Shown: positions 711 through 59,250, counted from the first letter of the stretch. The stretch: 64,000 bases of DNA from an uncultured Clostridia bacterium (GCA_947627595.1 CANQWQ010000002.1:39899-103898), one strand, 5' to 3'. The notes: generated by a model from the letters alone, not told the origin. Numbers and translations are program-made.

Positions 711-737
711 GGGAAAAGGGGACTGTCCCCTTTTCTC
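711..737. repeat. dispersed 27-bp palindromic element, copy 1
   Basis: gggaaaaggggactgtccccttttctc; near-perfect inverted repeat around a central base; same unit recurs at 8 more sites. Confidence 0.85.
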
Positions 738-827
738 ATTTTTTATAAAAAGTTATTGATGTTCGCTTGTAAAAAAGAAACATATGTTATATATTTAATG
801 TATAGTTTTTATAAGGAGATTTTTAAG

Positions 828-1448
828 ATGTATTCATATATTAAAGGTGATTTAGAAGAAAAATCAAATGGTTATGTTGTTATAGATAATAACGGAATTG
901 GATATAAAATTTTTATGTCAAATACTGCAATTGGCAGAGTTGGCGAGCTTCACTCAAAAGTTAAAGTTTATACATATTATCATGTAAGAGAAGATAATAT
1001 TAGCCTTTACGGTTTTAATACAAAACAAGAATTAAGAATGTTTGAGCTTTTAATTTCAGTTAGTGGAATTGGATCAAAATCTGCAATGAATATGCTTTCA
1101 AACATTGAGCCATCTACATTTGCTGTTGCCGTAGTTTCAGGAGATATAAAAAAAATAACTGGACTTCCTGGAATTGGAAACAAAACAGCTCAAAGGCTTG
1201 TCTTAGAACTAAAAGATAAGTTAAAAGCTGAGCAAGAGTTAACAAACTCAGAAAATCTTGAAATCGAAGAACAAGAATCTAATGGTAAAACAAAGACAAA
1301 AGTTAAGCCAAAAAGTTTATCAAGTGATGCTTCTGATGCGCTTCAAATCTTGGGATATAACAAAAGAGATATTGACGCCGTTTTGGAAAAAATTGATATG
1401 AGTCAAACAACAGAAGAAATCATAAAACAAGCATTGAAAATGCTATAA
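828..1448 (+). CDS. ruvA: Holliday junction branch-migration protein RuvA
   Basis: MYSYIKGDLEEKSNGYVVIDNNGIGYKIFMSNTAI...LISVSGIGSKSAMNMLS...LPGIGNKTAQRLVLELKDKL; AAGGAG RBS 813-819; 206 aa. Confidence 0.9.
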   Translation: MYSYIKGDLEEKSNGYVVIDNNGIGYKIFMSNTAIGRVGELHSKVKVYTYYHVREDNISLYGFNTKQELRMFELLISVSGIGSKSAMNMLSNIEPSTFAVAVVSGDIKKITGLPGIGNKTAQRLVLELKDKLKAEQELTNSENLEIEEQESNGKTKTKVKPKSLSSDASDALQILGYNKRDIDAVLEKIDMSQTTEEIIKQALKML

Positions 1449-1486
1449 CTTAAGGGAAAGTAAGATTTATCCCTTTTTTTAAAAAT

Positions 1487-1513
1487 GGGAAATGGGGACA
1501 GTCCCCTTTTCCC
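1487..1513. repeat. 27-bp palindromic element, copy 2
   Basis: gggaaatggggacagtccccttttccc, directly after ruvA. Confidence 0.85.
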
Positions 1514-1534
1514 AAAATGAGGTAGGAGAGATTT

Positions 1535-4500
1535 ATGGAGTTTACGCCTGAACAAAAAGATGCAATTTATAAAAAAGGTTCAAATATTCTAGTTGCAGCC
1601 GCTGCCGGTTCTCGGAAAGACGGCTGTTCTTGTTGAGCGAATTATTCAGAAGATTTTAAATGATGGCGTTGACATTGATAAATTATTAGTTGTAACTTTT
1701 ACAAATGCTGCAGCTTCTGAAATGAGAGAAAAGATTTTAGATGCTATCTATAAAAAATTAGATGAACAGCCTGAAAATGACAATTTGCAAAGACAGATAA
1801 ATCTTATTTCAAGAGCAAATATTTCTACAATTCACTCATTTTGCTTAAATGTTATAAAAAATAATTTCTTTGAAATTGATATATCTCCAAACTTTAGAAT
1901 TGGAAATGAAGAAGAAATTATCTTAATGAAGCAAGAAGTTTTAGAAAAAGTTTTTGAAGAAAAATATGAAAATGAAGATAAAGATTTCTTGAAATTAGTT
2001 GATACTTATGGAGAATATAGTGGTGATGAAAAACTTCAAAACTTAGTTTTGAGAATCTATTCTTTTGCCAGTTCTGCTGCTTTTCCAGAAGATTGGTTAA
2101 AAGAAAAACTAGAGATGTTTGATATTGATGAGACAGAAGATTTTTCTAAAACTGAGTGGGGTAAAATTTTAATTAAAGAGTTAAAAGATACTGCACGTTC
2201 TTGCAAAGATAATATAAAAGCCGCTTTAGAAGAAACTAGAAAATATGAAGAATTAATTGATTATACTAGAAACTTAGAAGAATGTATGTCAAACTTAAGA
2301 GAGTTTAATAGTTGCTTAGATTCTTCTTGGGACAAGGCTTTCGAGTTTTTCAATAATACTGAGATTTTTCCAAAATGGAAAGTAGATAGAAAAATTACTT
2401 TAGAAGCAAAAGAAAAAGCAAATGATATTAGAAAAAATGGTAGAAATAATTTCAATAAAAAAGTTCAAAAATATCTTGCTATAGACAGTAAAACAGCGAT
2501 TCAAGATATTAAATTTATGCTAGAAATTATTAAGAACTTATGTAATTTAGTTTTAGATTTTGATAAGGCTTTTAAGGAAGAGAAAAAAGAAAAAAATATA
2601 ATTGATTTTAATGATATTGAACATTTTGCTTTAAATATTTTAGTTAAAAAAGATGAAGATGGAAATTACGTTCCAAGTGAAGTTGCTAAAAATTATAGCA
2701 AGCAATTCGAAGAGATTGCAATCGACGAATATCAAGATAGTAACAATGTTCAAGAGCTAATCTTAAAATCTGTTTCAAACGGAAAAAATATCTTTACTGT
2801 TGGTGATGTTAAACAGAGTATTTATAGATTTAGAAGAGCTTGTCCAGAGCTGTTTTTAGAGAAATATCACAATTATAGTTTAGACGGAAATGAAAATGGC
2901 TTAAAAATTAAGCTTTTCAAGAATTTTAGAAGTAGAGAAAATATTTTAAATGTAACAAACAAAATCTTTGAAACTATTATGAGTGAAGAACTTGGAGAGA
3001 TTGAATATACTGAAGAAGAATTTTTAAATCTTGGTTCAAGTTTTGAAACAAATGAAAACACTCTAACAAAATCTGAAATCTATGTTATTGAAAATAATCT
3101 TGAAGAAACCCAAGAAAATGAAGAAGATTTTGAATCACAGGAAGATGACGAAAAGTCTGATAATAGCGTAATTGAAGAAATTAAAGAATTAGAAAAAGAA
3201 GAAATAGAAGCTAAATTTGTTTGTCAAAAAATTAAAGAATTAATAGATTCAAAAGTTCTAGTTACTGATAAAAAAATCGGCTTAAGACCTATAACATATA
3301 GAGATATCGTAATTTTATTAAGAACTACAAAAAATTCAAATATATATGAAAAAGAACTTTTGAAAAATAAAATTCCAGTTTTTACAGATGGAAGTGCAGA
3401 ATATCTTGATACAGTTGAAATTCAGACAATTATGAATTTGCTAAAAATTTTAGATAATTCACTTGATGATATAGCTGTTGTTTCAATTTTAAGATCACCG
3501 ATTTTTGGATTTACAGATAATGAAATCGTTGAAATAAGATTAGTAAATCGTGATACTTATTTTTGGAATTCAATTTTAGAAGCTAGTCAAAGCCTAGAAA
3601 ATGAGGCTTTAAAAGAAAAAGTAAATTTGTTTTTAAATAAAATAAATGAATGGAAAGATGAAAAAGATTATCTTCCAATTAGCGAATTAATTTGGAAAAT
3701 TTACGTTGAAACTGGTTTTTATAATTATGTTAATCTTATGCAAAATGGTGGAATAAGACAAGCAAATTTAAAAATGCTTTTCGAAAGAGCTAAAGAATAT
3801 GAAAAAACTAGCTTTAAAGGATTGTTCAATTTTATAAGATTTATAGAAAGACTAAAAACTGGAAATTCTGATTTGTCTTCAGCTAAGATAATTGGCGAAA
3901 ATGAAGATGTTGTCAGAATTATGAGTATTCACAAAAGTAAAGGTTTAGAGTTTCCGGTTGTTTTCCTTTGCAATTCTAATAAAAAGATGAATAAACAAGA
4001 TTTACAAGGAGATGTTTTATTACATAAAGATCTAGGTTTCGGACCTGATTATATTGATAATGAATTGAAAATCCAATATCCTACATATGCTAAAGAAGCT
4101 ATGAAAATAAAGCTAAATGATGAAGCAATTTCTGAAGAGATGAGAATCCTTTATGTCGCTTTAACTAGAGCTAAAGAGAAGTTAATTATTACAGCGATTA
4201 GAAAAAATGAGGCTGAAAATTTAGAGAAAAAGAAAAGAGAATTAGAGCTTTATTTTGACGAAAATAAAATTAGTCCAAGTTTATTAAGAGCTAAAAATTC
4301 TTATTTAGACTGGATTGAATATGTAATTTTAAACTATGAAATTCAAGGAAAAAAGTTTGAAGATTTAGATTTTAAAATAATAAGTCCAGATGAGTTTTTA
4401 AAAGAGACTGATGAAACTGAAAACGAAGCTCAAATAATAGATTTTTCTGAATATAATGATTTTGAAAAAATAGAAGAAAGCTTTAATTGGAAATATGAAA

Positions 4501-58585: not shown

Positions 58586-58589
58586 AATT

Positions 58590-58620
58590 GGAGCACCTTA
58601 TAAAAGGTGCTCTTAGTTTT
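58590..58620 (+). terminator. rho-independent terminator after typA
   Basis: gagcacctt-ataaa-aggtgctc plus T-run. Confidence 0.7.
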
Positions 58621-58622
58621 AA

Positions 58623-59225
58623 ATGGAGAAAATTATGAATTTAGAAGTTTTAGAAAAAGTTAAAAAAGACGCTTTAGAAAATCATGTTCCAATTATTATG
58701 GACGAAACTTTAGATGTTATAAAAGAATATTTAGATGAGCTAAAACCTAAAAAGATTTTAGAAATTGGAACAGCTGTAGGGTATAGTGCTAGCCAGTTTG
58801 TAAGACTTTCAGGTGAAAAAGCCCAAGTAGATACTATTGAGCTTGACGAAGAAAGAGCAAAACTTGCAATTGAAAATATAAAAAATATAGGTCTAGAAAA
58901 TAATATAAATGTTATGATTGGAAATGCTGTTGAGATTTTGCCAACACTAGCAGGACCTTATGATATGATTTTTATTGATGCTAACAAAGGAAAATACCCA
59001 GTTTTCTTGAATGAAGCGTTAAGAATGTCTAGGGAGGGAACAATAATTTTTGCTGACAATGTTTTATATAAAGGATATGTTTTAAGTGATTACAATAAAC
59101 ACAAACAAAGAACAGCTGTAAGACATCTAAGAGAATATTTAGCTGAAGCAATTTCTAACGAAAATCTAGACACACAAGTCTCAACAGTTGGAGATGGCCT
59201 AGCAATCAGCATTGTTAAAAAATAA
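58623..59225 (+). CDS. class I SAM-dependent O-methyltransferase (YrrM/caffeoyl-CoA OMT-like)
   Basis: ILEIGTAVGYSASQF...MIFIDANKGKYPVF; 200 aa. Confidence 0.8.
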   Translation: MEKIMNLEVLEKVKKDALENHVPIIMDETLDVIKEYLDELKPKKILEIGTAVGYSASQFVRLSGEKAQVDTIELDEERAKLAIENIKNIGLENNINVMIGNAVEILPTLAGPYDMIFIDANKGKYPVFLNEALRMSREGTIIFADNVLYKGYVLSDYNKHKQRTAVRHLREYLAEAISNENLDTQVSTVGDGLAISIVKK

Positions 59226-59226
59226 G

Positions 59227-59250
59227 AAAAAGGAACAGTCCCCTTTTTCC
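59227..59250. repeat. degenerate copy of the palindromic element
   Basis: aaaaaggaacagtcccctttttcc. Confidence 0.5.

Follow-up and report, generated by a model that had tools for sequence, protein, structure and literature searches.

A lineage-restricted family of 27-bp palindromic repeats, probably spread by insertion, at gene ends of an uncultured Clostridia bacterium

The locus and its repeat copies

The DNA considered here is a stretch of 64,000 nucleotides from an uncultured Clostridia bacterium (GCA_947627595.1, CANQWQ010000002.1:39899-103898), referred to as the window, in which a 27-bp palindromic unit recurs close to groEL, ruvA, argS, the spoVA operon, infB, truB, lysS and other genes. 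The window has about 30% G+C and a GC skew that is positive throughout, and nearly all of its genes lie on the + strand; their context was assigned by NCBIfam profile scans together with sequence inspection. The consensus of the unit is GGGAAAAGGGGAC-N-GTCCCCTTTTCCC, and the window holds seven near-perfect copies, one variant with an expanded loop and one degenerate copy. Loci fetched from other assemblies for comparison are designated by L numbers.

When GGGAAAAGGGGACAGTCCCCTTTTCCC was searched with at most three mismatches, matches were obtained at 711, 1487, 14517, 36596, 38906, 45018 and 56652, and none of 100 dinucleotide shuffles of the window contained a match to the 27-mer. The core GGGGACNGTCCCC occurs seven times, at the same seven sites, against an expectation of zero. 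The nine copies of the preliminary description are thus real, and a repeat search identified the unit as the sole dispersed non-coding repeat family of the window. The term "perfect palindrome" used in that description suits the consensus and two of the nine copies, those at 14517 and 56652; the other five near-perfect copies carry one or two arm mismatches. Assembly artefacts are not the source of the copies, since they are base-for-base the same in independent assemblies from other samples (L009-L011, L031-L036).

The copies and the conventional terminator of groEL are listed below, with free energies from RNA folding in 51-nt contexts.

680..704, + strand: conventional terminator hairpin of groEL, AAAAAGAGGGTTACCCCTCTTTTTT, outside the family; its T-run and the next A/T bases form the presumed insertion context of copy 1.
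711..737: copy 1, GGGAAAAGGGGACTGTCCCCTTTTCTC; ATTTT on both flanks, U-tract after the hairpin in the + sense, -19.6 kcal/mol; the order is groEL stop, conventional terminator (680-704), copy, ruvA.
1487..1513: copy 2, A7>T variant; AAAAT on both flanks, no sense U-tract; its 27-mer is the reverse complement of the copy at 38906; the order is ruvA stop, conventional terminator (1452-1480), copy, addA.
13072..13113: expanded-loop variant, A5-GGGGAC-G-GTTCT-CTTCA-AGGAC-G-GTCCCC-T6; covariance model score 25.7 bits, -27.5 kcal/mol; starts directly at the argS stop (gap 0 nt) and occupies the entire 45-nt gap between the convergent genes argS (+) and spoVAE (-).
14517..14543, in the spoVA operon (- strand): perfect copy; no sense U-tract, -22.6 kcal/mol; 2 nt past the true stop of spoVAC (- strand) and 14 nt ahead of the spoVAD start, closely followed by the spoVAD GGAG ribosome-binding site.
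36596..36622: infB-rbfA copy with two C>T changes, which give G.U pairs in the sense RNA; 5 nt past the infB stop and followed by rbfA, within the infB-rbfA unit.
38906..38932: truB copy with AAAAAT on each side; the orthologous copy of L012 has the perfect consensus; 4 nt past the truB stop, upstream of the pyrB promoter.
45018..45044: lysS copy, followed by A+T8 and terminator-like, -21 kcal/mol; 58 nt past the lysS stop, behind a different hairpin.
56652..56678: perfect copy after an acyl-CoA ligase gene; ATTTT on both flanks plus a U-tract, -23.3 kcal/mol; 5 nt past the ligase stop and followed by a promoter-like TTGACT-N18-TATAAT upstream of typA.
59219..59255: degenerate copy AAGAAAAAGGAACAGTCCCCTTTTTCC at 59227; covariance model score 35.5 bits; left arm decayed, weak hairpin, -8.7 kcal/mol; 1 nt past a methyltransferase stop.

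The variant at 13072 has the GGGGAC/GTCCCC base and the A/T tracts in common with the family. All nine copies are intergenic, intergenic DNA making up about 7% of the window, and six of them begin 0-5 nt past a stop codon. Of the other three, those at 711 and 1487 lie directly behind conventional terminators and the one at 45018 behind a different hairpin. The stacking of copy 1 behind the groEL terminator and the hairpin at the convergent argS/spoVAE junction had both been read correctly. Of the terminator-like hairpins found in the window, the 27-mer accounts for about half, and the remainder are of unrelated sequence.

Signatures of probable insertion

At the truB|pyrB junction, filled and empty sites can be compared. 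In the relatives L023 and L025 (TruB 69-74% identical) the site reads TAAAAAT|TRCTTTACA, followed by the pyrB promoter, and in the window and in the strain represented by L012 it reads TAAAAAT-(27-mer)-AAAAAT-CTCTTTACA. The filled site thus differs from the empty one by a gain of 33 bp, consisting of the 27-mer and a second AAAAAT.

Direct repeats of this kind are common in the family. Every copy is preceded by T and followed by A, and the five flanking bases are AAAAT, ATTTT or near variants of these, usually alike on both sides. Over 11 independent sites, these A-W3-T direct repeats match at 43 of 55 positions, compared with a mean of 16.8 of 55 at random intergenic positions (P<5e-5) and 32.7 of 55 when the pairing of left and right flanks was shuffled (P=0.024).

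A copy also differs in place between strains. Over 12 kb, the strain of L012 and L013 shares 98.8% identity with the window. At infB|rbfA, a conserved hairpin (window 36628-36667) has the copy on its 3' side in this strain and on its 5' side in the window. Comparison with L012 shows that the copy at 45018 once lay directly behind a lysS 3' end (TAA-T-GAGAAAAGGGG...). In addition, a rare arm variant, A7>T / T21>A, is found at three loci in two genomes and in both orientations (1487, 38906 and L004-956). The copies at 1487 and 38906, reverse complements of each other, have TTTTTTAAAAAT...AAAA flanks in common, and L004-956 combines this variant with these flanks behind an unrelated gene. Finally, the copies at 711, 1487 and L004-2320 are stacked directly behind functional-looking terminators, which fits insertion better than selection because an extra terminator is not needed there.

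Further length differences were noted at gene ends in these loci. Comparison of L012 8514-8640 with window 44940-45044 revealed that in L012 18 bp of the lysS 3' end (CTATGAAGCCAATTTAAT) are directly repeated, bracketing a 53-bp segment with the hairpin CTCGTGGGACAGC-GAA-GCTGTCACTCGAG; 15 bp of the second repeat are gone from the window. A separate small insertion at the stop codon, with a long duplication, appears to have occurred here. A comparable event is seen in the relative L025 (~8200-8630), where the infB-rbfA spacer is 387 nt long and the infB 3' end (ATAATGGAGCAAGTAAAGTAA, probably more) is duplicated around an insert of ~100 nt; the spacer in L023 and L026 measures only ~15 nt. In L012/L013, the loop of the conserved GCTTGCG...CGCAAGC hairpin between infB and rbfA, the counterpart of window 36628-36667, contains a 97-nt insertion (L012 61-157) without an Rfam match.

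RNA hairpins and terminator character

The unit folds into a stem of 12-13 bp. Free energies of the seven near-perfect copies range from -17 to -23.3 kcal/mol, with z-scores of -2.2 to -4.2; the z-score is -5.6 for the variant at 13072 and -3.3 for the degenerate copy at 59227. A stable G+C-rich hairpin is present in eight of the nine copies.

The sequence that follows the hairpin divides the copies into two sets. In five (711, 13072, 45018, 56652 and 59227), the hairpin is followed in the sense direction by a U-rich tract, and these are credible predicted intrinsic terminators, with 13072 as the best, and likewise credible, candidate for a bidirectional one. The other four (1487, 14517, 36596 and 38906) have an A-rich sense flank and no U-tract, and two of these, at spoVAC|spoVAD and infB|rbfA, lie inside operons in the orientation that lacks the tract. 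These four more probably act as a barrier to 3' exonucleases or as a partial attenuator, or are neutral, as far as folding and flank composition can predict. The earlier suggestion that most copies can act as bidirectional terminators consequently stands for 13072 as a candidate and, as regards a sense U-tract, for five of the nine copies, and does not extend to "most".

Of 12 independent sites, 10 have A as the centre base of the palindrome on the + (leading) strand, a bias that may point to insertion in a strand-specific manner or to selection acting on the RNA loop.

Distribution among relatives and in unrelated genomes

The closest named relatives are two metagenome-assembled genomes (MAGs) from rabbit gut, Lapin-033 bin15 (L005, L014; TruB 75% identical) and Lapin-005 bin96 (L004). 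L004 covers a different housekeeping region (DUF6020, aspartokinase, yabP-yabQ-divIC, rho) and contains three family members in 6.7 kb, again just after stop codons or behind a hairpin. An expanded-loop variant akin to that at 13072 (GGGGACGGTCC-N9-GGACCGTCCCC) occurs in L004. One perfect copy is found in L005. The unit is thus not confined to the window, and recurs at unrelated housekeeping loci.

No copy was detected, by regular expression or by a covariance model built from 11 copies, in ~98 kb from seven loci of relatives with 69-83% protein identity that cover the truB and spoVAD regions (L014, L023, L025, L026, L028-L030). The only hits of the model there were generic terminators of similar style (GGGAAAAG...CTTTTCCC). 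The family is therefore lineage-restricted; it is expanded in the source species and is present in at least three related lineages, so that the label "species-specific" holds in the sense of restriction to a lineage and not in the sense of a single species.

A different repeated hairpin, TTTAAAAGTAATAAA..TTATTACT, is carried by L028 (SpoVAD 81% identical) at 4194-4301 and 5301-5419, in each of its two spoVA intercistronic spacers. This observation suggests that the clade repeatedly gains lineage-specific small palindromes at the same kind of site.

In a collection of species-representative genomes, the perfect 27-mer gave eight single matches, six of them in unrelated taxa of 42-70% GC. One exact match each came from an Anaerospora genome, from MAGs labelled Novosphingobium and Herpetosiphon, from an unclassified bacterial MAG and from an Ectothiorhodospiraceae MAG (two contigs). 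A metagenome scan yielded six further single matches, all in contigs of 55-72% G+C, and no contig with several copies. The unrelated genomes and metagenome contigs with a single copy (L001, L002, L006-L008, L017-L022) range from 48 to 72% G+C. The cross-phylum matches have native high-GC flanks without A/T repeats, and several lie between convergent genes, abutting both stop codons. In a control of matched design on viral contigs, the inner 21-mer A4-G4AC-N-GTC4-T4 had 2 matches and two control palindromes had 15 and 0. Given the native flanks, the convergent-gene setting and the similar recurrence of control palindromes, a universal mobile element and an artefact were both rejected as the leading explanation of these matches. 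They are probably convergent bidirectional terminators, because simple palindromes of this type recur generically. As a separate observation, L003 has additional tandem half-sites (CAGTCCCCTTTTCCCAC repeated).

No copies of the 27-mer were found in viral contigs, plasmids or phages, and BLAST searches against plasmids and phages returned nothing significant; there is therefore no sign of a phage or plasmid vector.

Origin of the family

Taken together, the filled and empty truB|pyrB site, the relocated copy, the shared rare variant, the direct-repeat flanks, the near-identity of the copies and their stacking behind terminators make it probable, with moderate confidence, that the 27-mer constitutes a lineage-restricted family of miniature palindromic repeats, resembling repetitive extragenic palindromes (REP) or very small miniature inverted-repeat transposable elements (MITEs), which has multiplied by insertion. 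The near-identical units and the insertion signatures bear out the view of the preliminary description that one repeat family, rather than a set of independently evolved terminators, is present.

Briefly, the element would insert into short A-W3-T runs and duplicate ~5-6 bp, or alternatively would carry one AAAAT itself and insert beside another. A/T pentamers of the flank type number 100 in the intergenic DNA of the window and just 11 of these 100 lie within 8 nt of a stop; the bias towards stop codons therefore needs a further explanation, either extra target specificity or, as we favour, loss of insertions in promoters, 5' untranslated regions and genes. Copies would then survive only in the narrow neutral zone that extends from the stop codon or terminator to the next promoter, which may account for the stop-adjacent pattern. 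Once inserted, a unit would be transcribed within the upstream mRNA and fold into a hairpin, and its terminator look would follow from the A/T run in which it had landed. A T-run flank (711, 45018, 56652) would make it an intrinsic terminator, a position between A and T tracts (13072) a bidirectional one, and an A-run flank (1487, 14517 in the sense direction, 36596, 38906) would leave it as a 3' exonuclease barrier, a partial attenuator or a hairpin of no effect.

Several results weigh against this account. Only one clean empty site, that at truB|pyrB, was obtained; further ones were sought via SpoVAD relatives and none was found, the intergenic regions being too diverged for alignment. Direct repeats are missing at two sites (45018 and L005-422), and part of the flank identity arises because both flanks come from a limited A/T-rich set; the test of pairing gave only P=0.024. 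The L012 infB|rbfA copy carries 22 extra nt and is no simple insertion, and recombination could be an alternative source of this difference. No further copy lies in the 9.5 kb past the right end of the window. Among 14 copies, 91% of cells pair, no pair has changed on both sides, and covariation is no better than in shuffles. Compensation is hence not supported for the changes noted earlier: the arm changes are one-sided G.U pairs or A.A/T.T mismatches, and gacTgtc and gacAgtc differ at the unpaired centre. Two weak observations remain on the other side: the outermost variable pair is G-C in the consensus, G.U in 711 and 45018 and A-U in L012-8607, and each of the four arm transitions seen outside the degenerate copy is a C>U in the sense-strand 3' arm that keeps G.U pairing, a bias that could result from leading-strand mutation. 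Moreover, no transposase, RAYT (REP-associated tyrosine transposase) or HUH gene was found in NCBIfam/Pfam scans of 30 open reading frames (ORFs) of the window and seven of L004, and no transposase is listed among the called genes of the other fetched loci.

A parent element was likewise sought. Isolated half-sites framing a larger element, as expected of a parent insertion sequence (IS), are absent from 36 loci; in the window every half-site with at most two mismatches lies in a palindromic copy, and the three single half-sites with three mismatches are within chance (shuffle mean 7). The flanks seen would result either from a target-site duplication by a DDE transposase or from an HUH enzyme that cleaves the same sequence at left and right. 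A more far-reaching version of the insertion account, which we put forward as a speculation and consider doubtful, is that the mobile element consists of the two 13-bp arms alone, generates a 5-6 bp A/T duplication, prefers sites immediately past stops or terminator T-runs, and is moved in trans by an enzyme with no link so far to such substrates; in Clostridia this would be either a transposase that has been domesticated or an HUH nuclease specific for hairpins. If so, the unit would be among the smallest mobile DNA units described, and the choice of flank would set whether a terminator or a read-through hairpin arises, rewiring operon boundaries in gut Clostridia.

Aside from insertion, ordinary intrinsic terminators might have converged on one optimal sequence, or been homogenised to it, through selection or gene conversion. 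The sense U-tracts of five copies would be explained in this way, and terminators of the same style do occur in relatives (GGGAAAAG...CTTTTCCC, GGAAAAAG...CTTTTTCC). The identical 27-mer is found singly between convergent genes of unrelated high-GC genomes, and palindromes of matched design recur in viral contigs (15, 2 and 0 matches). However, the truB|pyrB site of the relatives is without any hairpin, which leaves nothing to convert, and 27 bp offers little length for gene conversion to act on. Working terminators already precede two of the copies, four of the nine lack a sense U-tract, two of them within operons, and flanking direct repeats would not be expected. Convergence or homogenisation without insertion is therefore judged unlikely.

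A REP in the strict sense, that is, a single-stranded DNA hairpin spread by a single-copy RAYT (HUH tyrosine transposase) encoded elsewhere in the genome, with AAAAT as the cleavage or target pentanucleotide, also appears improbable. Group 1 RAYTs do occur in Clostridia, with weakly repeated flanks (PMC5581495), and the short extragenic palindrome at gene 3' ends, the flanks, which equally fit identical left and right cleavage sites, and the centre A on the + strand at 10 of 12 sites, a hint of strand-specific insertion, are all in keeping with such a mechanism. The unit nevertheless lacks the GTAG or CGTC tag of REPs (PMC3733652), and its copies do not pair up into REPIN doublets. On the + strand AAAAT flanks are about as common as ATTTT flanks, a pattern not expected of a strand-specific target, and no RAYT was seen in the window or the fetched loci.

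Least probable is that the palindrome is a DNA recognition site kept by selection, such as paired DNA uptake sequences or an operator or other site bound by a dimeric protein: conservation is strong in both arms, the symmetry is perfect, and the window has genes resembling those of type IV pili or the type II secretion system (T2SS), a machinery type used in DNA uptake too (weak N_methyl match), but half-sites are never single while uptake sequences are over-represented as single copies, including in genes, a regulator site would be expected upstream of genes and not 0-5 nt past stops, and we know of no sequence-specific DNA uptake in Firmicutes. That pairs of DNA uptake sequences or uptake signal sequences (DUS/USS) form terminator hairpins (PMC1852404) is a further point in its favour.

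Other features of the window

The spoVAC gene (window 14546-14991, - strand) is interrupted by a 1-nt frameshift near 14710-14730: an ORF at 14662-14991 matches positions 1-83 of the 141 in the SpoVAC profile, and the rest continues in another frame to a TAA at 14546-14548. The frameshift is likewise present in L009 (~3x coverage); spoVAC is either a genuine pseudogene here or has been misread in sequencing.

No Pfam match was obtained for five large ORFs of 482-954 aa (18234-19865, 40675-42123, 45131-47995, 52808-54901 and 61357-62985), and two of them, 18234-19865 and 45131-47995, likewise matched nothing in NCBIfam, against which these two were also scanned. At 21223-22991, three paralogues of ~190 aa stand in tandem, in the region that resembles type IV pilus / T2SS genes. 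Downstream of pyrI, an unannotated Cys-rich ORF of 40 aa with a hydrophobic core (MQESRGCGFFDNECIWLILILLILFCCCGNGNNSRSGGCC) is found at 40392-40514 (- strand); its DNA is conserved in L014, L023 and L025, and it has no NCBIfam match.

Near-identical assemblies of the same strain also differ by indels: L031 is without ~84 bp of an M20 peptidase gene (window 6677-6762), and L034 differs in typA (57297-57374).

Significance

The insertion signatures, the dependence of terminator character on the flanks and the lineage distribution are the new elements of this work. Small palindromic repeats are well studied in Proteobacteria (REP/RAYT), and few accounts of them are known from low-GC Firmicutes. 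With its 27 bp and its signs of insertion, the unit would be a very small and tractable model of repeat spread, and it would illustrate how gene ends acquire new terminators and mRNA 3' hairpins, even in operons such as spoVA and infB-rbfA. In practical terms, the unit is a marker of this uncultured rabbit-gut lineage in metagenomes and may break short-read assemblies. It is also a caution that not every stop-proximal hairpin is an evolved terminator.

Comparison with known repeat classes

No named family was matched. Rfam gave no match at the gathering threshold in the window and none at E<=0.1 in L012 and L025, and a full-text literature search for the sequence strings returned only unrelated human-genetics papers; the plasmid and phage searches described above agree with this. 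The earlier comparison with BOX elements is not apt, as these are modular and 100-200 nt long.

REP and REPIN sequences of Enterobacteria, Pseudomonas and Stenotrophomonas (SMAG) are similar to the unit in several respects. They are extragenic palindromes of 20-40 nt at gene 3' ends, sometimes touching stop codons, and they are species- or lineage-specific, have many near-identical copies and can form mRNA 3' hairpins (PMC3733652, PMC2817692, PMC3116915). REPs have a conserved GTAG or CGTC tetranucleotide at one end (PMC3733652), whereas the 27-mer ends in GGGA...TCCC, has flanks of A/T only and shows no such tag. All of its copies are singlets, in contrast to REPIN doublets and BIME clusters, and the only elements that they are stacked with are unrelated terminators and, in L004, the expanded-loop variant. 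A perfect-palindrome consensus with a single-base centre, the A/T direct-repeat flanks and the low-GC Firmicute host set it apart as well, and a link of the unit to a RAYT is conceivable given the group 1 RAYTs of Clostridia.

MITEs such as Correia/NEMIS and RUP share with the family the inverted terminal arms, direct repeats resembling target-site duplications, filled and empty sites and an intergenic location, and they can supply terminators. They are typically 50-500 bp long and derived from an identifiable IS with the same ends. The 27-mer, in contrast, measures 27 bp, consists of only two 13-bp arms and has no parent IS in the 36 loci.

The uptake sequence pairs of Neisseria and Pasteurellaceae are comparable in that one conserved inverted-pair sequence provides a large share of the terminator hairpins (PMC1852404). 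Uptake sequences are, however, also plentiful as single copies in genes, and the half-sites of the 27-mer occur only paired. The SDR repeats (21-27 nt) of Nostoc and Anabaena, reportedly described by Elhai et al. in 2008, are said to look mobile, to be predicted hairpins and to have been recently inserted as judged by comparison of orthologous sites. Unlike the 27-mer they are cyanobacterial, and they are said to be often nested or embedded in other repeats and not tied to stops or terminators. TRIT is a conserved-sequence terminator motif of Mycobacterium tuberculosis, similar in that terminator-like hairpins with one common sequence lie downstream of many genes and different in its high-GC host; we know of no reported insertion signatures for it. 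Against this background, the 27-mer can be placed among the small palindromic extragenic repeats as a new member, from a poorly studied group of hosts.

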